Positions 4,465 to 51,016 are shown, counted from the stretch's first letter. The stretch: DNA of 64,000 bases from an uncultured virus (IMG/VR IMGVR_UViG_3300014208_001449) (IMGVR_UViG_3300014208_001449); one strand, 5' to 3'. Notes: generated from the letters alone by a model not told the origin. Program-made: numbers and translations.

Positions 4465-5679
4465 ATGAGCACGAACGAGCACAAGATTCAAGGCGGACGG
4501 GCAACGGCGATCATCTACGGGGGCTATCTCGACCAGATCGAGAACCAGCAACTGTATGCTCTGCTGGACAACCCTGCCTTCGAGGGGTCCTCTGTGCGAA
4601 TCATGCCGGACCACCATGCCGGAAAGGGCTGCATGATCGGCTTCACTTGCCCGATCAACATGAGCGATCCCAAGATCGTGCCTAATGTTGTTGGCTCGGA
4701 TATCGGTTGTGGAGTTGTGGCCTATCCTCTGGTGGGTGTGAAGGCCGCCAATTTCCTCGGGGATCGTGAGTCCTTTGATCAGCATCTTCGGCGGGTTGTC
4801 CCCTTCGGATTCAACAACCGCCAAACGGTCTACAAAGGATTGGCCGACCTCTTCAAGAAGCACCTGGGTCATGGCCAGTCGTTCCAGGATTTCGAAAAGG
4901 AAGTCAACGCTCTGGACAAGAAAATAGAAGGAGACCAGACCGGAGTGTGGCTTGGTATCGGGTCTATGGGGCAGAATAATCACTTTTTGGAGGTTGACCA
5001 GGATTCGGAGACTTCGGATCTGTGGTTGACTGCGCACTCTGGCTCCCGTAATTTCGGGCTCAGGGTTTGCAACTGGCACCAGAAGAGAGCGGAACAACGG
5101 GTTGGCCAGCGAGCCGGTTTGGCGTGGCTTTCCGATGAAGAAGCCCTAGAGTACCTGCACGATATGCGTTTGGCCCAACAGACGGCTATCCTCAACCGGC
5201 TGGTCATGCTCTGTGAGCTGCTGGCTTTTTTCAAAGTGCCTCTGGAGAAAGAACTCCTGGTCACTTCGGTACATAACTACATCGGAGACGACAACATAAT
5301 CCGAAAAGGTGCCATCTCGGCCTATACCGGAGAGACATGCATCGTACCGTTCAACATGGAAGATGGGCTAATTCTCGCACGAGGCCGAGGAAATCCTGAC
5401 TGGAACAATTCCGCCCCCCACGGAGCTGGGCGCATCATGTCTCGGGGACAAGCCCGCAAAGACCTGTCTGTTGAAGAATACGAAACTCGGATGCAGAAAT
5501 CTGGGGTGTGGTCTTCCTGCGTGGGTAAGGATACCATCGATGAAGGGCCCGCAAACTACAAGCCCATGCAGGAAATCCTAGACGCTATCGGGGATACCGT
5601 TGAGGTTGTGAAGATGCTCAAGCCGCTCTACAACTTCAAAGCCGCCAAGAAAATCCCCAAGAAGAGCCACAAGGAATAG
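4465..5679 (+). CDS. rtcB: RtcB family RNA ligase (3'-phosphate/5'-OH)
   Basis: MPDHHAGKG, VGSDIGCG, NHFLE, HSGSR, HNY, RKGA, SAPHGAGR and DEGPANYK motifs. Confidence 0.95.
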   Translation: MSTNEHKIQGGRATAIIYGGYLDQIENQQLYALLDNPAFEGSSVRIMPDHHAGKGCMIGFTCPINMSDPKIVPNVVGSDIGCGVVAYPLVGVKAANFLGDRESFDQHLRRVVPFGFNNRQTVYKGLADLFKKHLGHGQSFQDFEKEVNALDKKIEGDQTGVWLGIGSMGQNNHFLEVDQDSETSDLWLTAHSGSRNFGLRVCNWHQKRAEQRVGQRAGLAWLSDEEALEYLHDMRLAQQTAILNRLVMLCELLAFFKVPLEKELLVTSVHNYIGDDNIIRKGAISAYTGETCIVPFNMEDGLILARGRGNPDWNNSAPHGAGRIMSRGQARKDLSVEEYETRMQKSGVWSSCVGKDTIDEGPANYKPMQEILDAIGDTVEVVKMLKPLYNFKAAKKIPKKSHKE

Positions 5680-10176: not shown

Positions 10177-10953
10177 ATGGCCGTAGACCGTTGGGTATCC
10201 AGGGATAAGCAGTGTACTATCCTTTTTCAGGACGCTTACGATTTCCCGGGCTCCATGCCCGCGGATTTGCCGGAGAGCACCTTCGACGCCATTATCACGG
10301 ATCCTCCCTACGGGATTCCGGCTAAGGCGGGTTTCGTCCGAAAAGGCGGGACGGTCATTTCCAACGGGGTAGGGACGTTCAACAGTTCGGAAAATCCATA
10401 TCGTTGGATCCCCCTCTATGCCCCCCTCGTGAAACAGGGCGGCCATATGGCCTTCTTCATCGACCTCTTCACGGGAGAAGCGGCTCTAGAAGCCGTTCGA
10501 TTCGCGGGGCTCTCGTTTTGGCACAAGTATTACATCGTGAAAGCGGCCCCGCCCCCGACTCCCAGGCCAACCTTTGCCAGTTCGGTTGAAGAGTGCATCA
10601 TCGCAGAGAGCAAGAACGGCAACCGGCATTGGTTCGGTGGAGGGTACACGCCCAATCGGTGGATTGGCTGCACTCCCAACATGCTCGGAGTTGGTCTGGG
10701 CCACGAATCAGAGAAGCCCCTGGAAGCCATCATGGAACTCGTCAAGGCCCTCACTCCTGTAGGCGGTAGTGTGCTTGACCCCTTCGTAGGGTCTGGGACA
10801 ACCGTGACTGCTTGCATGGCTATTGGCCGTAAATGTGTGGCTATCGAGAACGATCGACGTTACTTCGAAATGGCAGTGGAACGGGCCAAGTCGGGGGACT
10901 TCTCGACAGACCAAAGTACCGTTACGGGAATTTTCGGAGGCCAGAAGGAATGA
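10177..10953 (+). CDS. N6-adenine/N4-cytosine DNA methyltransferase (beta class)
   Basis: TDPPY precedes HESEKP and DPFVGSGTT. Confidence 0.9.
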   Translation: MAVDRWVSRDKQCTILFQDAYDFPGSMPADLPESTFDAIITDPPYGIPAKAGFVRKGGTVISNGVGTFNSSENPYRWIPLYAPLVKQGGHMAFFIDLFTGEAALEAVRFAGLSFWHKYYIVKAAPPPTPRPTFASSVEECIIAESKNGNRHWFGGGYTPNRWIGCTPNMLGVGLGHESEKPLEAIMELVKALTPVGGSVLDPFVGSGTTVTACMAIGRKCVAIENDRRYFEMAVERAKSGDFSTDQSTVTGIFGGQKE

Positions 10954-11414
10954 GACCCGACTGGGACGACTATTTCCTGTCCATTGCCAAGGTGGTGGCG
11001 ACTCGTTCTAACTGCGTCCGTCGCCAAACCGGAGCAGTGATTGTCACGCAGGAACACCAGATCATCACGACTGGCTATAACGGCACGCCTCGGGGGTACC
11101 GAAATTGTGACGAGGGAGGTTGCCCCCGTTGCAGTGGCGACGCCCCTAGCGGGTCTGACCTGTCTGAATGTTTCTGCTCCCACGCCGAAGAGAATGCAAT
11201 TGTCCAGGCCGCCCTTCATGGCGTGAGCGTGAAAGACGGCCATATGTATGCCACCCACTCCCCCTGCCTCATCTGTGCCAAAATGATCGTCAACGCAGGG
11301 ATCCGACTGGTGGTCTTCGAAACTCTGTACCCGACCTTTGAAGCACAATCCAAGCCACTGCTCAAAGCATGCGGCGTCACGCTCGTCTACAAAAGAGACG
11401 GAAAGGATAGCTAA
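10950..11414 (+). CDS. dCMP deaminase
   Basis: WDDYF, TGYNG, HAEENA, PCLIC zinc-deaminase motifs. Confidence 0.93.
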   Translation: MRPDWDDYFLSIAKVVATRSNCVRRQTGAVIVTQEHQIITTGYNGTPRGYRNCDEGGCPRCSGDAPSGSDLSECFCSHAEENAIVQAALHGVSVKDGHMYATHSPCLICAKMIVNAGIRLVVFETLYPTFEAQSKPLLKACGVTLVYKRDGKDS

Positions 11415-11415
11415 A

Positions 11416-12966
11416 ATGGACACCAACGATCTCCGTCAACTCGACGCCTTTGTGACCAACCCGGGCGGCAGTGTTTACTGCATCAAGAACCTGCCCGAAG
11501 AGGTGGTTGCGGTCCTCTTCGCCTACGTCTCACGGAACCCTGACAGCATCCAGCTCAACTTGCTGAAAATGCTCCAACAGCAGAACGGGGACGGCGCTAT
11601 CGATCCTGCCATGTTCGACCTCTTTGACTTGGCTTCGGAGAAAGCAGCAAAGTTCCACGAGAAGTGGGTTGTGGGGTATGGGCATGCTTCGGTTGCAGAG
11701 CACGCCGTCCTGCACTACGGTATCGAGGGCATTTCCATCCTGGCCACGAAGGTCCTGGAAGACGCCCGTCTCGCGGCTTATACCGAGAAGTCGACCCGTT
11801 ACCAGTTCTTCGGGAAAGACACGTTCTACCTGCCCGAGAGTCTGGAACAGTACCGCCCTGATATGAACCGCCTCATGGAGGACTACCGAAACCTTTTCGG
11901 GGAGGTCTACGCTCGACTCGAAGAAAAGTACCCTCCGAAGGAAGACCTTAACGACGAGGGGAAAGCTTACTTTGCAGCCCTGAAAGCCCAAACGTGTGAT
12001 GCTGTCCGCGGGCTGCTCCCTGCGGGAACCAAGACCATGCTGGGGATGACGGTAAATGCAAGAGAAGCGGCGTACGTCATTTCGAAGCTCCTGTCGAATC
12101 CGCTTCAGGAATGCCAAGACCTGGGTCGAGAGATGCTGGCCGAAGGCCGGAAAGTTTGCCCCACTCTGTTCCGTCATGCTGAAGCTTCTGATGCGCTGAA
12201 AGAATTCAGTGACCATGTTTACCACACCCCCAGAGCGGACTACCTGTTCGAGGACTCTAAACTGCCCGCCCTCAAAAGGAACGAAGTCAAGCTCATTCGA
12301 AGCTGGCCTGACAGCGGGGACGCTACAGAATTCCTGTCTAGAGCCGAGAGGTATGAGCACAGCAATGCTCCCATGGAGGCTATGGCTAACTGCAGGGTAG
12401 AAGACCTGAAAACTCTAGCGGCATGCGACGGGGGGCATTTAAATCGTATCCGGCAAATCATGAACATGGATGCCCACGCGGCTCCCCCCAGGTTTTTTGA
12501 GTTGATGCGCTTCGTTTTCGAGATCACCTGTGACTACGGAGCATTCAGGGATATTCAGCGGCACCGAATCGGAACCCAACTGTCTCCCCTCTTCACAGCA
12601 TCTTTGGGCTATGAAGTGCCCGAGGAAATCTTGAACCTGGGGTTGCAACCCCTCTATGCCGCCGCCATCGAGAGGGTCAAGAAAGCCTACCTCAGTGCCT
12701 GTGAGGGGTCGGGATTTACTGACTGCCAGTACCTGCTCCCCATGGCTTTCAGAAAGCGCCTTCTCGTCGATTGGGACCTCCGGGAGGTAATCCATTTCAT
12801 CCGGCTGCGTTCTGGCCCGCAGGGCCACATCTCGTACCGGAAAATTGCATGGTCAATGCGGGATCAGATCCTGGCAAAGTTCCCGGAGTTGGAACCGTTT
12901 GTTACGGCAGATACCAACGAATATCCGCTTGGTAGAATGGCTGCGTATGTGTCGGAGACGGAGTAG
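11416..12966 (+). CDS. thyX: FAD-dependent thymidylate synthase, two-domain type
   Basis: YGHASVAEH and EKSTRY in N-half; RDIQRHR and LRSGPQGHISYR in C-half. Confidence 0.88.
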   Translation: MDTNDLRQLDAFVTNPGGSVYCIKNLPEEVVAVLFAYVSRNPDSIQLNLLKMLQQQNGDGAIDPAMFDLFDLASEKAAKFHEKWVVGYGHASVAEHAVLHYGIEGISILATKVLEDARLAAYTEKSTRYQFFGKDTFYLPESLEQYRPDMNRLMEDYRNLFGEVYARLEEKYPPKEDLNDEGKAYFAALKAQTCDAVRGLLPAGTKTMLGMTVNAREAAYVISKLLSNPLQECQDLGREMLAEGRKVCPTLFRHAEASDALKEFSDHVYHTPRADYLFEDSKLPALKRNEVKLIRSWPDSGDATEFLSRAERYEHSNAPMEAMANCRVEDLKTLAACDGGHLNRIRQIMNMDAHAAPPRFFELMRFVFEITCDYGAFRDIQRHRIGTQLSPLFTASLGYEVPEEILNLGLQPLYAAAIERVKKAYLSACEGSGFTDCQYLLPMAFRKRLLVDWDLREVIHFIRLRSGPQGHISYRKIAWSMRDQILAKFPELEPFVTADTNEYPLGRMAAYVSETE

Positions 12967-12967
12967 T

Positions 12968-13234
12968 ATGATGTCAAGCAGAAATAAGTGGGTCGACTTC
13001 TGTCCTCGTTGTGGCAGTCATGTAGAAGAAGCCCTTTCAAGTGCTCCCGTAGATAGGGACTATCAGTGGGGAGATGATATCGAACCTTCTGACGAATATG
13101 ATGGATCCGTCAAAGTTCGATGTACTAACCCAAACTGTATGTTTAGTGATTGGGACACCTGTTGGACTCTACATCATCCTGCGGGCAGCCAAACCAGTCC
13201 CGGGGAAAGCTTCTCACTCTCTTGGATTCGATAG
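12968..13234 (+). CDS. putative zinc-binding hypothetical protein
   Basis: CPRC...CTNPNC. Confidence 0.6.
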   Translation: MMSSRNKWVDFCPRCGSHVEEALSSAPVDRDYQWGDDIEPSDEYDGSVKVRCTNPNCMFSDWDTCWTLHHPAGSQTSPGESFSLSWIR

Positions 13235-13244
13235 GAGGCGTGAA

Positions 13245-13808
13245 ATGATCCTGACGCTTAACATTCCTGATGATTTAGTTGACGAGGCAATTTCAGCGGG
13301 GCTGGAAAATGCCCTGTCGAAAGATATAGAGGACTACACAGACTGCGGGATTCAGGGAGTGTATGCCGGCACTCCAATCCAGAAGTTCGTAGAAACCGAA
13401 ATGGAAAAACGAGATATCCGAGGAATCCTGGCTTCTGCAGTATCTGAGAGCATGCAGTCTTTTCTGTCTAACGTAGTGCAGAGAGAAACATTCGTCCTGC
13501 TGAGGAATTTGGTTTGTGAACAGATATCGAAAAGCCGTCGGGAAGGACACACCCTACCTCTGATCTTCATCGTGAACGGAGAGAATATTCCGGTCGAAGC
13601 CGTCCCCACGGAACTTCTTTACAAAGCTCGAAACAGGGCTCTGGAGCTTAGCCACAACACAGGACGCCCTTACGACGAGTGGGAGGTTTACAACGAACGA
13701 GGAGAACGAATCCGCCCTATAAACAGCCTCACACCGGAGGATCTCAGACTGCCCGCCCACACCAGACTCTTCGCATCTTTGAGAGTTGGGGTAGGAGCTG
13801 ATATTTAG
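13245..13808 (+). CDS. protein with C-terminal ubiquitin-like (DUF2604-like) beta-grasp domain
   Basis: IVNGENIPVEA...ALELSHNTGRPYDEWEVYNERG...RLFASLRVGVGA; AGGAGG RBS. Confidence 0.72.
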   Translation: MILTLNIPDDLVDEAISAGLENALSKDIEDYTDCGIQGVYAGTPIQKFVETEMEKRDIRGILASAVSESMQSFLSNVVQRETFVLLRNLVCEQISKSRREGHTLPLIFIVNGENIPVEAVPTELLYKARNRALELSHNTGRPYDEWEVYNERGERIRPINSLTPEDLRLPAHTRLFASLRVGVGADI

Positions 13809-13852: not shown

Positions 13853-14215
13853 ATGACTGAATCCAAGTCTCCCGAAACTATCCGCGAGTGGCAAATCGCC
13901 ATCCATGACTACGCCAAAGAGAAAGGCTGGTACGGCACCGATATCGTGGAGCGCCGGTCCTTTGGGGACTTGATTGCTCTCTGGCACTCTGAGCTGTCTG
14001 AGGCATATGAGGAGTTCCGCAACGGCCACAGCCTCACGGAAATCTACTATGGCCCCGATGGAAAACCCGAAGGAATCCCTGTAGAGATCGCCGACTTGGT
14101 TATCCGCATCCTGGACACGTGCGAGCATTTCGGGATCGATATGCAAAGCACGATGGAGATCAAGCACAGGTACAACCAGACCCGTCCGTACCGCCACGGC
14201 GGGAAAGCCACCTAG
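13853..14215 (+). CDS. MazG-like nucleotide pyrophosphohydrolase
   Basis: HSELSEAYEE...EIADLVIRILD...K..YN..RPYRHGGK. Confidence 0.88.
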   Translation: MTESKSPETIREWQIAIHDYAKEKGWYGTDIVERRSFGDLIALWHSELSEAYEEFRNGHSLTEIYYGPDGKPEGIPVEIADLVIRILDTCEHFGIDMQSTMEIKHRYNQTRPYRHGGKAT

Positions 14216-29190: not shown

Positions 29191-30407
29191 GGTTGCTCTC
29201 AGCTTTTCGGCATCGAGCTTGGAAGTAAACGGAAACCATAAATTCCCGCCAGCGCAAGGTCTCGGATGTTCTTAGCAGCATTGAGGTCGGCATGATCCGA
29301 ATGGCCACAAAACACGCATTTGAACACGTCGCCCTTACGGCTTCGTTTGTCCCATTTCCCACATTTCGGGCATCGTTGTGAGGTTTTCCAAGGATCTTTT
29401 CGTTCCAGCCGAATCCCAAGCTCCTCACACCTTTGCTCCAACCATGTGGAATAGGTTCCGTAGAACCAATGAGACAACCGCCTATTGAACCTACGCGGAA
29501 ACTTTCCGCGTGTACCAGATTTAACGTTTTTCAAATCCTCGATCGCAAGTACCTGAACGCCCTTGAAATCCAAGCCCTTGAGAGCATGAAACATCATGCT
29601 CTTTGCCTCGGCCTTGGTGTGCTTCTGTCTCTTCGAGAATTCCTGGATCCTGTCGTAGACCTCTTTCCCGATGAACTGCCCGTCAGAAGTGACAAGGCCA
29701 TTCTTATAGTTAGAATCGAGTCCCAGGACTTCGCCCTTTTCACGGATGGCGGGACGGGGCTTTTCCAGGAGGAAATCCACGAACAACCGTTTAGTCTTAC
29801 CGGAACAGTCGTAACCGAGTCGAATTGAATTCCCCAGAGTCCAACCCGCTCCAAGCTTCCTGTTGAGGTGCTCAGTCGACTTACACGGGATGATCATCTT
29901 AGGAGCCCCAGAGCCGCCGAGCTTGATCGCCCAATCGAATTTGGCGTTAGTTCCGGGAGCATTTTCAAAAGGTTCGATCTTGACAAAGTGGGAATAGAGG
30001 GTCATGGTGTGCTGGTGGAGGTTGGGTTTATGGGGGTGCTTGGTCATGAACTTAGCCCGTTTTCGGGAGGAGCGGATAGTCTCCTTGGCCTGTTTAGCAC
30101 AAGCCTGGGCCAGCCGAGCGGCAATCCCGAAACGGTCACAACCTCTGTGAACGGTGTCGAGATCGGCCAGGGTGGCAGAGAAGTCTTTCCTCTGCCAGAA
30201 AAGATCGATGAAATACTGGGTCACGTCGTGGCCCAGAAGGAGGAACAAAACGACTTCTTGGGTCTTGGTTGTGTTGAGGTCGTTAAGATAAACTCTGGAG
30301 GATCGGCGCATCGTAGGAACACGAAATTTAGGATGCGCCTTGATCACTTACGGAGTCCTTCTCTGTTGGATCTTACTATACCCGATTTGAGACGAAACAG
30401 AGGAACT
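29191..30407 (-). mobile_element. non-autonomous TnpB-only IS200/IS605-like element (about 1.2 kb)
   Basis: contains only tnpB; ATGATT present at both junctions; interrupts a gene. Confidence 0.7.
29199..30347 (-). CDS. tnpB: TnpB RNA-guided endonuclease
   Basis: RuvC GLDSN / IEDL / HADLNAA and CPKCG...CVFCG zinc ribbon. Confidence 0.88.
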   Translation of the reverse strand: MIKAHPKFRVPTMRRSSRVYLNDLNTTKTQEVVLFLLLGHDVTQYFIDLFWQRKDFSATLADLDTVHRGCDRFGIAARLAQACAKQAKETIRSSRKRAKFMTKHPHKPNLHQHTMTLYSHFVKIEPFENAPGTNAKFDWAIKLGGSGAPKMIIPCKSTEHLNRKLGAGWTLGNSIRLGYDCSGKTKRLFVDFLLEKPRPAIREKGEVLGLDSNYKNGLVTSDGQFIGKEVYDRIQEFSKRQKHTKAEAKSMMFHALKGLDFKGVQVLAIEDLKNVKSGTRGKFPRRFNRRLSHWFYGTYSTWLEQRCEELGIRLERKDPWKTSQRCPKCGKWDKRSRKGDVFKCVFCGHSDHADLNAAKNIRDLALAGIYGFRLLPSSMPKS

Positions 30408-36504: not shown

Positions 36505-36891
36505 ATGCTATGGCCCATTATCCTCTCGCTGATCGGAGCGGCGCTCTGCGGCTATTCAGGGCACCGTAATGGGGTTCTCTTCTTTCTAGGGATCTTCTTA
36601 GTGGTATCCAGGCCCGGCATCCTCGCCAATAAGGAACGGGACTTCGTGAACTCTTCCAGAGCCGTGGCCTTGACTTATGCTGCTAGCCAGCTCCCGCCCT
36701 GGGAACTGAAGAACATTGTCTGCTGGACTACGAGCACCCCAACCTACGGGTTTGGTAGTGCTACGTATGCGGGAAGATGCACGTTGACCATGACGGCGAA
36801 TGAGGAGCATATCAAGCCAGGGCTCCACGTTTTTCACTTCACCTGTCGAGGAGAGCACGCAACTCCCGAGTGCTCTCGGGACCAACCCTAA
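36505..36891 (+). CDS. hypothetical membrane protein
   Basis: hydrophobic N-terminus; AAGGAG RBS. Confidence 0.6.
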   Translation: MLWPIILSLIGAALCGYSGHRNGVLFFLGIFLVVSRPGILANKERDFVNSSRAVALTYAASQLPPWELKNIVCWTTSTPTYGFGSATYAGRCTLTMTANEEHIKPGLHVFHFTCRGEHATPECSRDQP

Positions 36892-36904
36892 AGGGACTTT
36901 AAAC

Positions 36905-37519
36905 TTGAAAACCTATCCTTCCATAGAGCGCAAACCCCACTACGGGTCGGGATACGTCTACCTGTTCGACAAGCTGGACGGCTCCAACATCCGATCTGAG
37001 TGGGCACGTAAGACCGGGTTTGGTAAGTTCGGGCGGCGGAATGGTCTGCTCGACGACACCAATCCCGTCTTGAAGGAGGCCATCGGGATCTTCGAGGCCA
37101 AGTATGCTGAAGACCTCGGCCGCATCTTCAAGGACCAGCGATGGATGAAAGCCATCGCTTTCCTGGAATTTCATGGCCCCAACTCCTTCGCAGGGAACCA
37201 TCCTGACGAACCCCACGACCTGACCCTGTTCGACGTGGCTGCGGACAAGAAGGGCATTATAGAACCCAGGGAGTTCATCCGCACCTTCGACTCCGTGGAC
37301 CATGCCGCCCTTCTTCACCAGGGAAATTTCAATCACATCATCGAAGAACAGGTCAAAACCAGTACGTTGCAGGGCATGACCTTCGAAGGGGTCGTCGTGA
37401 AGGGCACCTATGCAAGCCCCGGACTGCCCATGATGTTCAAGGTCAAGTCCCAGGCGTGGCTCGACAAGCTGCGGGGTTACTGCCACGGGGATGAGCAAAT
37501 GTTTGAGCGATTGAGGTAA
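36905..37519 (+). CDS. RNA ligase-like covalent nucleotidyltransferase (Rnl2-like)
   Basis: KLDGSN (motif I), EFHG, LFDV, EGVVVK, FKVKS. Confidence 0.8.
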   Translation: MKTYPSIERKPHYGSGYVYLFDKLDGSNIRSEWARKTGFGKFGRRNGLLDDTNPVLKEAIGIFEAKYAEDLGRIFKDQRWMKAIAFLEFHGPNSFAGNHPDEPHDLTLFDVAADKKGIIEPREFIRTFDSVDHAALLHQGNFNHIIEEQVKTSTLQGMTFEGVVVKGTYASPGLPMMFKVKSQAWLDKLRGYCHGDEQMFERLR

Positions 37520-40141: not shown

Positions 40142-40792
40142 ATGAAAGTACACCTGATCGCTGGGGATTTGACTACGTTTGCAGGGGGCGCTATATGCAA
40201 CGCGGCAAATGAGGTCATGCTTGGTGGCGGGGGCGTCGACGGAGCAATCCACCGTGCCGCGGGCCCAGAACTTCGAAAGGCGTGTGAGGCGGTCTACGCT
40301 GAGGACGTGTTGGCCTACGGTCCAGGTCTCAGAGAGATGCGAGGCAAGCGTTGTGGTATAGGGCAGGTTGTTCCGACTCCGGCTTTCAACTTGCCGTGTA
40401 AGTGGGTCTTCCACACAGTAGGGCCGGTCTGGCCTGTGGGCTGCGAAGAGGATGAAGACCCCCTCTCCAGGTCCACCCAACCGGACGATGACGGCAAGCC
40501 CTTCCTGACGAAGGGCAGGCACGCCCGTCTCCAACTGGCTGCATGCTACGGTCGGTCCCTGTACTTGGCCTCAGCTATGGGGCTCAAGAGCATTGCTTTT
40601 CCGGCCATCTCAACCGGAGTTTATGGTTGCCCTCAAGAGGTCTGTGCTGAGGTGGCCGCGTCGGTGTGCGGTGGGAGACACATGCAGTTCCTTGGGGCTG
40701 AGAAACTGCGTCTAGAGGTGACCTTTTTCATCCATCCGGCTGAGCATCTCTCAACATGGCAAGAGGCGGCTAAGTACAAGGCAGGAGATTAA
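40142..40792 (+). CDS. macro domain protein (ADP-ribose binding/hydrolase)
   Basis: GDLT, NAAN, GGGGVDGAIH, HTVGPVW, FPAISTGVYG. Confidence 0.93.
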   Translation: MKVHLIAGDLTTFAGGAICNAANEVMLGGGGVDGAIHRAAGPELRKACEAVYAEDVLAYGPGLREMRGKRCGIGQVVPTPAFNLPCKWVFHTVGPVWPVGCEEDEDPLSRSTQPDDDGKPFLTKGRHARLQLAACYGRSLYLASAMGLKSIAFPAISTGVYGCPQEVCAEVAASVCGGRHMQFLGAEKLRLEVTFFIHPAEHLSTWQEAAKYKAGD

Positions 40793-44427: not shown

Positions 44428-44708
44428 CTGTGGGAAGCTCCTTTTTCGATATCGGGAACGGTGAATTCAGTCTCACCCGTGAAGAGATCCTATGTCTCGC
44501 TACGGGGAAATTCCACACCGTTACCTGCCCAGTTTGCGCGGGGTCAAAATGGTTCTACGTGAACGGAGTTACGGGAGACATCGAACGGCCCCCAACCGGA
44601 TCTACCCCAGAACAAATTGAGGAGGGGTGCTATTATACACACCCCTGCGACGAATGCAACCAGTTCGGGTTCAATATCGTGTTCCATGAGGAAGGAGAGA
44701 CAAAGTGA
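44424..44708 (+). CDS. zinc-finger-like hypothetical protein
   Basis: CPVC.G...CDEC...G. Confidence 0.6.
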   Translation: MTVGSSFFDIGNGEFSLTREEILCLATGKFHTVTCPVCAGSKWFYVNGVTGDIERPPTGSTPEQIEEGCYYTHPCDECNQFGFNIVFHEEGETK

Positions 44709-45412
44709 CGACCGCGCAGATCGACACCTTCAAGGACATCCCCGACCAGATGCTCTGGAAGGGCCCCGCCCTCCACCAGATCGAAAATTTCCGGAAGCTC
44801 ACTCAGAGGCTGGGCTACCGTTGGGCTACTGTGGGGCACCACTTCTCTAAGAGCATCAAGCTCCCAGTGGTCCGCATCTCACGGAAGGGGTTGCAGTTCT
44901 ATCTCAGGGACAACTTCTACGACATCAACCTGTGTGCGGTGTCGAAGGAGCCCATCACGGTGCCTATGTCCGTGCTGTTTGAAGGTGTTCTCACGCCACA
45001 GACCTGGGATTGGTATCTGAACGAAATCTCTCGGTCCCGGGGGTATTCGTGGAGCCCGTGGACGGATGCGCAAATGGACGATCCCGACCTGTTGACCGTC
45101 GACCCCGATCCGGAGCCGAGGAGATACACGCATATGACCAAAGAGCCCGGAGAGAAAGCTCGTTGGCTCCGGCGTATGATGGATCCGACGTGGTATTCAC
45201 ACGACTGGTCCAGCGGAGTCATCTGTTGGGAAGAGGATTTCGGTCCCGGAGCCAAGCTCTACATTCAGGAGCACCCTTACCTGGAGGGGATCTCCTCTAT
45301 CGTCCCCAAAAAGAAGACTCAGCCGTATGTCACAGGCTGCAAGGGGTTTGCTGTAGCCCTGTCCTCGTTGGAGCAAGCAGAGGCCCTCATCCGCCGTCTC
45401 ACGGCTGACTAG
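44705..45412 (+). CDS. hypothetical protein
   Basis: GTGA overlap. Confidence 0.7.
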   Translation: MTTAQIDTFKDIPDQMLWKGPALHQIENFRKLTQRLGYRWATVGHHFSKSIKLPVVRISRKGLQFYLRDNFYDINLCAVSKEPITVPMSVLFEGVLTPQTWDWYLNEISRSRGYSWSPWTDAQMDDPDLLTVDPDPEPRRYTHMTKEPGEKARWLRRMMDPTWYSHDWSSGVICWEEDFGPGAKLYIQEHPYLEGISSIVPKKKTQPYVTGCKGFAVALSSLEQAEALIRRLTAD

Positions 45413-45429: not shown

Positions 45430-45924
45430 ATGAAACTAACCTGTATCGTCTATGGGGAAGAGTACTCGATAGAAACCGAAGAGGGCCAAAGTCTGATCCG
45501 CCTCAGGGAAACAGTTCTAACGGAAAGCTTGGTGACAGGCAGACCCTATTCTCATTTCGAGCTACGAAATGATAAAGGAGTCTGGCTGAATCCTTTGCTA
45601 ACCACATCCGAAGCAGGACTCCGGGACGGAGACATACTGTGGGTCACCCCGGCCATTGCTGCTGGTGGGTCCAACAAAATCAACCACCGCAGGAAGCACC
45701 AGCGTATCAAGACCGACTGTCGATATGCCAAAGGTAAACGTCAGGTCTCCGGGGGTCCGTGCCGGAACACTTCGGGGCATTACCACAATGGCGTAAGGTG
45801 GATGAAACGAGAGGGAGTTCGTACCTGTCGTCGTGCAGGGTGGCCCACAGGAACGGTCCGGTACATCCAACCCTATTTTAGATCTCCTTCCAAGCTGCGT
45901 GCTCTGATGCTCAGTGGGGAATAA
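45430..45924 (+). CDS. ubiquitin-like (DUF2604-like) protein with Gly-Gly and basic C-terminal extension
   Basis: residues 1-80 end in IAAGG and align by eye with the Ubl of 13245..13808; 84 aa K/R-rich tail. Confidence 0.7.
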   Translation: MKLTCIVYGEEYSIETEEGQSLIRLRETVLTESLVTGRPYSHFELRNDKGVWLNPLLTTSEAGLRDGDILWVTPAIAAGGSNKINHRRKHQRIKTDCRYAKGKRQVSGGPCRNTSGHYHNGVRWMKREGVRTCRRAGWPTGTVRYIQPYFRSPSKLRALMLSGE

Positions 45925-49409: not shown

Positions 49410-50702
49410 TTACTTGTCTAGCTCCAATTGAGCTTCGTCAACGTTCGGTTCCTGCTTCACAGAGTCAAGTTGTGCCCCCTCCCCCGTAGGTACATAAGAG
49501 CCAGAGCTTGTCTCTCCACAGGCTTCTGTGATCCGTTTCTTCTTCCTTTTCGGCTTCCGAACAGGAGGAAGGAGAACGGAGCACACGGGGGAACTCCCCG
49601 CTAACTTCGTTAATTTTGCTAACTGAACCAAGTTGATCGCTGCGTTGTGATCCCTGTCAGCTTCGAAACCACAAGCCTCGCAAATGAATGTTCTTTCCCC
49701 TAGAGTCAGTTCTTTCTTTACTACACCACAGGCGGAACACCTCTTAGACGAAGGGAACCATCGATCCGCCTTAACCACAGTCCCGCCCGCCATCCACATC
49801 TTGTACGTGATCATTCTGTGAAGACTGCCGGGCGAGGCGTCCGCAAGTGCCTTCGCCAAGCAATGGTTCTTCGCCATCCCAGCAACGTTCAACGTCTCTA
49901 ACACGACCGTTTCGGCTCGCTTGGCTATCGCGTCCGAAACTTTGTGCAGGGCGTCGTTGCGCTGACAGGCGACTTTATAGTGTTGCTTGGCTAGTGCAGT
50001 TTTGGCTTTCTTGGAGTTCTCGGATCCTTTCTTCTTGCGAGAGAGGGACTTTTGTAAAAGGCGTAGCCTCCTTTCTGACCGTTTAAGGGCTCGTGGATTT
50101 TCGAAAACTGTCCCATCGGATAAGACTGCCAAGGACTTGATCCCTACGTCAACTCCCAGGGTTTCTGTCCCCAGAGGTCGAACGTGGGGCTCATCGGTTT
50201 GAATTGAGACAAACCACCTACCCGCTCGTTCCGAAACCGTTGCTGACTTGATTTCGACGTCAGTTGGAAAGTACCCGTGCTCTTTAAGACGGAGCCATCC
50301 GATACGGGGAAGACGGATTCTTTGTTCTGTTACCAGAACACTCCCACGTAGAGTGAATGACCCGATCCCGTCTTTTTTCTTCTTGAACTTAGGATAGCCT
50401 TTCTTCTTACACTTAGGATCCCTACATCGGCGGAAAAACCCATCCATTCCGGAATCTACGTTGGCCAGAGCCCCCTCAGAAACTTTAACCGGAATATCAT
50501 TCAGCCAAGTGAACTCTGTTTTCTTGAGTTGCGTGAGTTCCTTCAGGAGATCATAGGCGGTATGGTACTTCTCCCCGTTCTTATAGGTTTCGTTTTTCCT
50601 TCTAAGACCATAGTTGAATACCCAACGAGCAGCACCTGAGTACTGCTTGCAAGTAGTTTTCTGCTTGTTGTTCAAATCCAACTCGGTCTTATAGGATCTC
50701 AT
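49410..50702 (-). CDS. tnpB: TnpB RNA-guided endonuclease (IS607/IS605 OrfB)
   Basis: HTH ARWVFN, GYPKFKKK, GVDVG, LETL, FPSSKRCSACG, DRDHNAA. Confidence 0.93.
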   Translation of the reverse strand: MRSYKTELDLNNKQKTTCKQYSGAARWVFNYGLRRKNETYKNGEKYHTAYDLLKELTQLKKTEFTWLNDIPVKVSEGALANVDSGMDGFFRRCRDPKCKKKGYPKFKKKKDGIGSFTLRGSVLVTEQRIRLPRIGWLRLKEHGYFPTDVEIKSATVSERAGRWFVSIQTDEPHVRPLGTETLGVDVGIKSLAVLSDGTVFENPRALKRSERRLRLLQKSLSRKKKGSENSKKAKTALAKQHYKVACQRNDALHKVSDAIAKRAETVVLETLNVAGMAKNHCLAKALADASPGSLHRMITYKMWMAGGTVVKADRWFPSSKRCSACGVVKKELTLGERTFICEACGFEADRDHNAAINLVQLAKLTKLAGSSPVCSVLLPPVRKPKRKKKRITEACGETSSGSYVPTGEGAQLDSVKQEPNVDEAQLELDK

Positions 50703-51016
50703 TTCCCGGCTTTTCCTTCTACTACCTTAGTCATTACCGCCAAAATCTCCCGAGCTAGCTCCTCAGAACACCGGATCGTAACTCGATTGTCTGGCTTTCG
50801 TTCTTGAACAAGAGGAGCAGGCCCTCTTAGCGGGACATCTTTACTGTCCTCTCCTGTTCCCATGAAAGTGTCGATATCAGACTGCCGGTACCTTCTATGC
50901 CCCCCAGGAGTTCGAACAGGAACCAGCTTACCCTTAGTGTCCCAGTGCCGAAGGGTCTCCGCATGAACCCCCAGGGCCTTGGAAACTTCCTGAATGCTCA
51001 AGAGGCGCTCAGCCAT
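50699..51016 (-). CDS. IS607 TnpA-like MerR HTH lacking the serine-recombinase domain
   Basis: LLSIQEVSKALGVHAETLRHWD.KGKL.PVRTPGGHRRY; no YARVS catalytic motif. Confidence 0.8.
   Translation of the reverse strand: MAERLLSIQEVSKALGVHAETLRHWDTKGKLVPVRTPGGHRRYRQSDIDTFMGTGEDSKDVPLRGPAPLVQERKPDNRVTIRCSEELAREILAVMTKVVEGKAGK

Follow-up and report, generated by a model that had tools for sequence, protein, structure and literature searches.

Why does a phage carry a bacterial protein tag with none of the enzymes that attach such a tag nearby? The question is raised by a gene at positions 13245 to 13808 of a 64,000-nucleotide stretch of DNA from an uncultured virus (IMG/VR IMGVR_UViG_3300014208_001449), the whole of which is referred to here as the window. 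The gene encodes a 187-residue protein, P0001, in which a helical N-terminal region precedes a ubiquitin-like (Ubl) domain. Its family, fold, orphan status and phage context show that it is a phage-borne, stand-alone homologue of BilA, the Ubl protein of bacterial Bil operons. What the protein does is less certain. The reading favoured here, to which we give a probability of about 0.4, is that P0001 is a BilA mimic that engages the Bil enzymes of the host as a dead-end pseudo-substrate. The parts of the gene are as follows.

13245 to 13808, + strand: coding sequence of P0001 (helical/coiled-coil region plus Ubl), stop included, from translation of the open reading frame (ORF)
13245 to 13553, + strand: N-terminal domain, residues 1-103; AlphaFold2 predicts a helix at 9-31, a low-confidence loop at 34-43 and a helix at 44-101 (58 residues)
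13554 to 13796, + strand: ubiquitin-like beta-grasp of the DUF2604/BilA type, residues 104-184, from Pfam, phmmer against the PDB and Foldseek
13797 to 13805, + strand: C-terminus Ala185-Asp186-Ile187; in an ungapped alignment Ala185 stands at the reactive Gly97 of Ensifer aridi BilA

Residues 104-184 match Pfam DUF2604 (PF10790) with an E value of 1.6e-10 over profile positions 6-84 of 85, and the score of 41.7 bits is above the gathering cut-off of 25 bits for the family. The preliminary description of this DNA had aligned by eye the last ~85 residues (from about 13554) with a second Ubl encoded at 45430 in the window. Both domains match DUF2604, and BLASTP aligns the two proteins with an E value of 1e-7 and 32% identity over 65 ungapped residues, so the likeness between them is not due to chance. 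The consensus of the family is FIVNGEDV.V...L..AR..AL..S.NTGRP..EWE.R...G...RLFL.L.VGAGG, and the signature NTGRP..EWE and LF.SL.VG.G is largely retained in P0001. When the 35 columns that are at least 85% conserved among 63 operon-linked relatives are considered, 28 are kept in P0001, 17 in the copy at 45430 and 21 in a copy from another phage contig, L003.

The predicted structure agrees with this assignment. AlphaFold2, supplied with a 98-row alignment, gave P0001 a mean predicted local distance difference test (pLDDT) score of 82, and residues 104-180 are predicted to form a ubiquitin-like beta-grasp (block pLDDT 94-98), the fold that the preliminary description had expected. Foldseek matched the model best in the PDB to 8tyx_A, the BilA Ubl from a bacterial Ubl-deubiquitinase complex of E. 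aridi, with a template modelling (TM) score of 0.91 on the target and a root-mean-square deviation of 1.5 A over 82 columns. The next match was 8tyz_B, and this was followed by ubiquitin, SUMO1 and NEDD8, each of these three with a TM score of ~0.8. The top matches of phmmer among PDB sequences were also the BilA chains of 8tyx and 8tyz (E 2.5e-7). In a HMMER search of 1.84 billion cluster representatives, 162 proteins had E values of 0.001 or less. Among the 150 matches listed, nearly all are confined to the Ubl domain, and none is a close full-length relative of P0001. Searches for relatives of the whole protein gave P0001 itself alone (word-based search) or none (single-protein search of IMG/VR).

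The genes beside the relatives place the domain in a known pathway. DNA around them was fetched for 16 genome loci (one genome per species) and 80 JGI metagenome loci. A locus was called an operon when BilB and/or BilD was present in the DNA examined, and an orphan when at least 700 bp downstream lacked them. The genome loci comprise 15 operons (with CEHH and/or PF14459/ThiF) and one orphan. A full Ubl domain is present at 77 of the 80 metagenome loci, three being partial, and these divide into 65 operons, 8 orphans and 4 loci that are too short. Of the 146 ORFs listed, 55, from 11 of the 16 genome loci, were compared with Pfam. The typical order is the Ubl, then Metal_CEHH (PF14455), then PF14459 plus ThiF. 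A JAB gene, found in 7 of the 11 loci, and an AAA_15 ATPase gene are usually on the opposite strand. Chambers et al. (10.1101/2023.09.26.559546) renamed the CEHH/6C operons Type II BilABCD, in which the CEHH protein is the E2, BilB, and the PF14459 plus adenylation protein is the E1, BilD. Relatives at 38-51% identity adjoin CEHH and PF14459/ThiF genes. Because these genes encode the Type II Bil enzymes, the phage domain belongs with Type II BilA, and the PDB matches agree.

An assignment of these loci to Type II Bub operons was also considered and was ruled out. The defining component of a Bub operon is a DUF6527/PF20137 protein (Ye et al., 10.1101/2024.11.21.623953), and two of the CEHH genes have no match to DUF6527 at E values up to 10. 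The CEHH genes of the other loci match Metal_CEHH and not DUF6527 at E values up to 0.001, no DUF6527/PF20137 gene is present in the window, and CEHH and PF14459 are the E2 and E1 of Type II Bil (Chambers et al., 10.1101/2023.09.26.559546). BubA, as described by Ye et al., is likewise a bacterial Ubl and is related; its N-terminus varies, while its C-terminal Gly is conserved. It differs in that its operon has the DUF6527 protein, whereas the middle gene beside the relatives of P0001 matches Metal_CEHH. At six of the loci (L006, L007, L009, L011, L019 and L020) a JAB peptidase gene lies on the opposite strand 3' of the E1 gene, with an AAA_15/AAA_21 ATPase gene alongside in five of the six and an unannotated gene of ~290 residues in four. 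The published gene order is Ubl-E2-peptidase-E1, so these loci may have a variant form of the operon, or a second system may lie next to it.

Is the domain truly without partners in the phage? No E1, E2 or JAB gene was found in the window among 82 ORFs by Pfam or among 66 ORFs by PADLOC. Profiles built from bacterial BilD, BilB and BilC had no match in its six-frame translation (best E values 1.4, 1.8 and 0.79). Thus the CEHH E2, the JAB peptidase and the E1 that accompany the Ubl in a Type II operon were not detected in these 64 kb, and both Ubls are orphans. A Ubl profile run on the same six-frame translation found exactly two domains, those at 13245 and 45430. The window is phage DNA. Its PHROG and Pfam matches include RtcB, 5' nucleotidase, thymidylate kinase, DNA methyltransferase, thyX, MazG, endolysin, transglycosylase and exonuclease, as well as RNA ligase, a macro domain, Hsp20, ParB and two TnpB genes. 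Relatives of a 534-residue ORF of the window occur in 532 GenBank phage records; those in Rhizobium phages are the best, at 44% identity.

A survey of other phages, which had been proposed as a check, showed that orphan DUF2604 domains recur on large phage contigs. Searching IMG/VR with the family alignment gave four orphan loci of two kinds, on contigs of 11 to 177 kb, three of them longer than 130 kb. In the first kind an 83-residue Ubl ends VGCGGHN; of its two contigs, one is of 155 kb and has replication genes, and the other is of 11 kb. In the second kind (L003:9992-10567 and L004, on contigs of 177 and 132 kb) an N-terminal Ubl without Gly-Gly (LALRMASICH) is followed by ~110 further residues. 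L003 and L004 share with the 13245 copy a Tyr at the Arg of the family (EWEVR becomes DWDVY or EWEVY). A single DUF2604 match and no ThiF are found in each of the four viral records, whose completeness is estimated at 65, 70, 49 and 6%. Searches by tblastn with P0001, the Ubl of L001 and the Ubl of the 45430 copy had no match at E <= 0.01 in 50,697 GenBank phage records. Phage-borne copies are therefore rare and have so far been found on large uncultivated phage contigs. A PHROG scan of seven metagenomic orphans found them among small unknown ORFs, with a few phage-family matches and one integrase; at most this hints at mobile elements.

The C-terminus of P0001, LRVGVGADI, is where the protein departs from its family. 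The preliminary description had pointed to two oddities here, an Ala in place of Gly and a two-residue cap. In the ungapped alignment Ala185 is in register with Gly97, in a column that is Gly in at least 90% of the rows of the family alignments. The cap is not special. Type II BilA has a reactive Gly followed by up to nine non-conserved residues; in this register P0001 lacks the Gly, and its tail of two residues fits. Among the 78 operon-linked relatives with a recognisable terminus, the tail has 1-10 residues in 66, none in 11 and more than 10 in one. According to Chambers et al. (10.1101/2023.09.26.559546), a peptidase trims such short tails off BilA, and all Type II BilA proteins conserve the reactive Gly. 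Of 80 operon-linked relatives 78 have Gly-Gly by terminus pattern, one more has it by eye and one has diverged, in fetched sets that are biased to Gly-Gly since the genome pattern and one of the two metagenome patterns required it. The 149 HMMER matches form an unbiased set, and 126 of them have a recognisable terminus: it is Gly-Gly in 117, Gly-Ala in 6, Ala-Gly in 2 and Ser-Gly in 1. A Gly-Ala terminus (~5% of the family) is thus unusual and not unique, and one relative, P0051, ends exactly at Gly-Ala. Tails in these 126 have no residue in 33, 1-10 in 58, 11-30 in 16 and more than 30 in 19, and an N-terminal extension of more than 60 residues is found in 32 members of the HMMER set. Orphans keep Gly-Gly in 11 of 14 cases, including the phage copy L001 and, by eye, the second copy of the window. 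Tails longer than 10 residues are commoner in orphans (4 of 13 plus the 45430 copy) than in operons (1 of 78).

The N-terminal ~100 residues were described earlier as a helical domain unrelated to the Ubl and as a possible cargo. The helical nature is supported by AlphaFold2, which predicts an amphipathic two-helix hairpin for residues 1-103. The view that it is unrelated cargo does not hold as well, as the arrangement is a known one among bacterial coiled-coil Ubls, and on the evidence gathered, the predicted model included, this part is not obviously a globular cargo. Single-beta-grasp Ubls with N-terminal coiled coils are described for Type II Bil and Bub operons, and of two coiled-coil Ubl proteins assayed one was a dimer (Gong et al., 10.1101/2024.11.21.623966). 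P0001, with its predicted helices at 9-31 and 44-101 and one beta-grasp, has the coiled-coil Ubl_1 architecture of Gong et al., in which a helical N-terminal region likewise precedes one beta-grasp. It differs in that the bacterial proteins have highly charged helices of Glu, Lys and Arg, while P0001 has the predicted amphipathic hairpin. Charged helical N-termini are present in five of the bacterial relatives (L012, L015, L016, L017 and L019). All but three of the HMMER relatives listed cover P0001 only from about residue 76; P0104, P0050 and P0106 (weak) begin earlier. A protein atlas gave no lead for residues 1-102.

How could a tag that lacks its reactive Gly be of use to a phage? Bil is an anti-phage tagging system with a phage tail protein as a reported target (10.1101/2024.11.21.623966; Hor et al., 10.1101/2023.09.04.556158; PMC12948488). 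As a BilA mimic, P0001 would dock on the host E1 (BilD) and/or the JAB peptidase (BilC) in the manner of the host BilA precursor. Because the Gly is missing, it could be neither trimmed nor adenylated. It would then stay bound as a dead-end pseudo-substrate, and fewer phage proteins would be tagged. That P0001 keeps 28 of the 35 conserved columns fits continued binding to Bil-family enzymes. An E1-E2-Ubl structure was obtained with unprocessed BilA, and its extra C-terminal residue occupies the adenylation site, where it would block ATP binding (10.1101/2023.09.26.559546). An untrimmable mimic would for this reason remain in the ATP-blocking state. Chambers et al. (10.1101/2023.09.26.559546) also report that E. 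aridi BilA with an extra C-terminal residue forms no conjugates. The helical N-terminus may pair two copies of P0001, and the 45430 copy, with Gly-Gly and a conserved basic tail, may affect this pathway by a different route.

Several points weigh against this reading. It presumes that the host carries a Bil operon; that the protein functions by mimicry is what we infer from its likeness to BilA. The missing enzymes may be encoded elsewhere, because the window is 64 kb of a contig of 86,418 bp, of which ~22 kb lies outside, and they may also be on a 189,794-bp contig that carries the second Ubl. A pattern of 50 bases at the end of the window had no exact match among JGI metagenome contigs that would continue it. 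The 11 of 14 orphans that keep Gly-Gly suit modifiers that are processed and conjugated better than they suit pure blockers. Gly184 adjoins Ala185, so that with a shifted register it could be the reactive residue, and the tail would be one residue shorter. The six Gly-Ala members, with P0051 ending exactly there, suggest that Ala may be tolerated. The change from Gly to Ala depends on one base (GCT vs GGN) in an assembly of ~8x depth, and the fragments from a second sequencing run have not been shown to cover the Ala185 codon. The pairing of two copies through the N-terminus is conjectural. The non-conjugatable trap, a reading put forward in the preliminary description, remains plausible and meets the same two difficulties, a possible reactive end at Gly184 and the recurrence of Gly-Ala.

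The contrary possibility is that P0001 works as a modifier. Once Asp-Ile or Ala-Asp-Ile had been removed, it would be conjugated to host or phage proteins, together with its helical N-terminus, by Bil-type enzymes of the host or by phage enzymes encoded outside the window. This would benefit the phage, for example by mis-directing the host pathway or by marking host proteins. Short tails are normal precursors in the DUF2604/BilA family, and the Gly-Gly of most orphans, the recurring Gly-Ala termini, the conserved columns of P0001 and the ~22 kb of contig beyond the window are all in accord with it. It is nevertheless doubtful, since the reactive Gly is described as universal in Type II BilA and the operon-linked relatives, albeit from a Gly-Gly-biased set, have Gly-Gly in 78 of 80 cases by pattern plus one by eye. 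The lack of E1, E2 and JAB within 64 kb also speaks against it, as does the fact that ThiF is missing from all four related viral records (completeness 6 to 70%). Ubiquitin in which the last Gly is replaced by Ala can still be conjugated but is poorly removed by deubiquitinases. If P0001 behaved in this way, a hijack of this kind, or a variant in which the tag is irreversible, would be favoured over the dead-end mimic.

It is about as unlikely that the domain is a non-covalent binding module, a helical scaffold or adaptor that is unrelated to Bil and serves, for example, the nucleotide-metabolism block of the phage. Its gene is in a same-strand array with NT5C, thymidylate kinase, methyltransferase, thyX and MazG, its N-terminal domain has no clear relatives, and orphan copies have long branches and in some cases (L003/L004) have lost the terminus altogether. 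A plain adaptor has no obvious use for the flexible Gly-rich tail that P0001 retains up to the last position, and would not be expected to retain the family signature to such an extent. The least probable explanation is that a recently captured host gene is decaying in the phage without function. A one-base change at the key residue and the singleton status of P0001, which has no close full-length relative among the matches listed, could be seen in this light. Against decay, the ORF is intact, and its ribosome-binding site is canonical and is coupled to the stop of the ORF before it. Its codon score is positive and near that of the thymidylate kinase gene, its predicted fold is very confident, and identical fragments occur in a second groundwater sample. 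The identity to any relative found is at most 49%, which indicates that the capture of the gene was not recent. The dead-end mimic is thus retained as the working explanation for P0001.

The second Ubl of the window is part of the same question. Its features are as follows.

45430 to 45669, + strand: second DUF2604 Ubl, residues 1-80 of the protein P0002, ending AIAAGG; Pfam match at residues 2-73 (E 2.6e-7, 31.4 bits), and BLASTP match to P0001
45670 to 45924, + strand, stop included: 84-residue basic extension after the Gly-Gly; codon score +0.10 in frame vs -0.44 and -0.41 in the other two frames

The two Ubls are fused in opposite orientations, as had been described, and both are true DUF2604 domains. 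Three relatives of P0002 are of the same size and have alignment identities of 71, 66 and 41%. In these the junction after Gly79-Gly80 and the tail (GGSNKINHRRKHQR...) are better conserved than the Ubl domain. A Ubl followed by a basic tail recalls ubiquitin fused to basic ribosomal proteins. The tail might be a cargo that is freed by cleavage at Gly-Gly, or a conserved nucleotide element. The exact sequence of the second Ubl is also present on the 189,794-bp contig, and a scan of IMG/VR with the family of the second Ubl gave no match.

How are the two copies, described earlier as paralogous, related? A tree was made from 80 distinct domain sequences (of 99) with 94 usable columns, which are few for that many rows. 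It has one well-supported split (97/96), with 55 rows on one side (54 operon, 1 orphan) and 25 on the other (12 orphan, 9 operon, 4 short), and both copies are among the 25. The 13245 copy clusters with three rows from metagenomes that are orphan or short (97/74, under the starring threshold) and the 45430 copy with another orphan (86/76). The branches are long, 1.33 for the 13245 copy and 2.92 for the 45430 copy, and their placement is unsure. From this sequence comparison the two look like separate lineages. A recent duplication in the phage is not supported because the copies are not sisters, and because they are ~30% identical to each other vs up to 49% (13245) and 39% (45430) to other sequences.

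It is possible, though we regard it as tentative, that large phages carry orphan BilA mimics against Ubl-tagging immunity and that the two in this window are complementary. The Ala copy, helical and perhaps dimeric, would plug the E1 or the peptidase of the host, and the Gly-Gly copy with its basic tail would be released by that peptidase or would soak it up. If this were true, it would be a first for anti-Bil mechanisms, and also the first instance of a phage that subverts a Ubl pathway with a mimic of the tag. The targets of Bil systems are structural proteins of phages, and no phage answer to Bil is described in the literature found. A phage tag mimic is a concrete candidate that can be tested cheaply. 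The phage copies also form a natural series of variants for the needs of the E1 and the peptidase: one has Gly-Ala and a short tail, one has Gly-Gly and a long basic tail, and one, in another phage, has lost its terminus. If P0001 is conjugated instead, a phage hijack of a bacterial Ubl pathway would be equally new.

No published account of phage-encoded BilA or BubA homologues was found, in a search that left aside the supplementary operon tables of three preprints from the Corbett laboratory, which might list cases. DUF2604 and PF10790 were not mentioned in the literature found, and searches for phage-encoded Ubls or for anti-Bil mechanisms returned unrelated papers alone. The accessible text of the Hor et al. 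preprint (10.1101/2023.09.04.556158) has no counter-defence passage. No named phage protein was among the 50 matches listed from BFVD.

How does P0001 compare with the nearest known systems? With E. aridi BilA (Type II BilABCD, 8tyx/8tyz) it shares the DUF2604 domain, the fold and a flexible Gly-rich C-terminus with a short tail. It differs from BilA in being phage-encoded, in having no E2, peptidase or E1 beside the gene, in its Ala for the reactive Gly and in its unique N-terminal 103 residues. The ubiquitins of eukaryotic viruses (baculovirus v-ubi and those of giant viruses) are likewise virus copies of a conjugatable tag of the host with the same fold; unlike P0001, they are close copies of eukaryotic ubiquitin. 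The tail-tip protein gpI of phage lambda has an N-terminal ubiquitin-like domain that is cleaved by gpK (PMC12908700) and is thus a phage Ubl domain that is removed by a peptidase. However, as far as the available text describes it, gpI is a structural protein encoded beside its own peptidase, whereas P0001 has a DUF2604 domain and its gene lies among nucleotide-metabolism genes with no peptidase nearby.

Other genes of the window touch on this subject. A 235-residue gene is at 44705-45412, 17 nucleotides 5' of the second Ubl. An alignment with its 22 relatives, at 31-63% identity, has invariant H46, S48, K49, S50, R68, N70, D73 and N75. The relatives are on phage contigs of up to 452 kb, and 18 viral ones have no Ubl nearby. 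An E2-like role for this gene was considered and not adopted. AlphaFold2 gave a pLDDT of 93.8 but Foldseek found no PDB match (best E 0.49). VIA-align gave Z scores of 5-7 to many alpha/beta folds, UEV, E2 and RWD among them, which is within background, and comparison with the Bil profiles showed no similarity (probability 0.3% to the E1 and 0.2% to the CEHH E2). Genes for an RtcB ligase (4465-5679), a DNA methyltransferase (10177-10953), an RNA ligase (36800-37519) and a macro-domain protein (40142-40792) are in the same region. Genes of these four kinds are often tied to the repair of damage by host defences or to escape from it, and they are circumstantial support for an accessory counter-defence region. 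There are also two TnpB/IS605-type genes, at 29199-30347 and at 49410-50702 (- strand), which are mobile elements, and a MerR-like gene at 50699-51016 is beside the second.

The immediate surroundings of the 13245 gene are as follows.

11338 to 12966, + strand: thyX (Pfam Thy1, E 2.4e-47)
12968 to 13234, + strand: small ORF of 88 residues with a CxxC...CxxxxC zinc ribbon (Pfam DNA_ligase_ZBD, E 3.1e-5, below the cut-off); its 3' part has a weak codon score
13233 to 13238, + strand: Shine-Dalgarno sequence AGGAGG, 6 nucleotides 5' of the ATG and overlapping the TAG stop (13232-13234) of the upstream ORF, from the sequence
13853 to 14215, + strand: MazG-like pyrophosphatase (phrog_3301, E 1.7e-30)

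The position between thyX and mazG that had been described is confirmed, with the zinc-ribbon ORF between thyX and the gene. The frame of P0001 is open throughout, and the coupling of its ribosome-binding site to the stop of the small ORF is the usual arrangement. When 17 family-supported genes of the window are used to train a codon-usage score, both halves of the ORF are found to be coding in frame (+0.29 and +0.23), with the other frames at -0.47 to -0.64; this is near the score of the thymidylate kinase gene, yet under those of most family-supported genes scored. The sequence is present in a groundwater metagenome that is probably its source, where the assembly has ~8x depth, and a second run from another study has identical fragments at ~3x that include 13619-13771. 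Scans of the window for tRNAs, Rfam families, promoters and terminators gave none, or none above shuffled controls. The Ubl gene could also begin at an ATG at 13074, since its frame has no stop from there on; the 57 residues gained would include a hydrophobic stretch, VCLVIGTPVGLYIIL. From ~13140 the codon score is weakly positive in this frame, where that of the overlapping zinc-ribbon ORF drops. This start was not preferred, because AGGAGG is at ideal spacing before 13245 and is coupled to the upstream stop; a longer, membrane-anchored form is thus a secondary reading. The thyX ORF has 542 residues, which is long for thyX, and it has two stretches that match the 191-position Thy1 profile.

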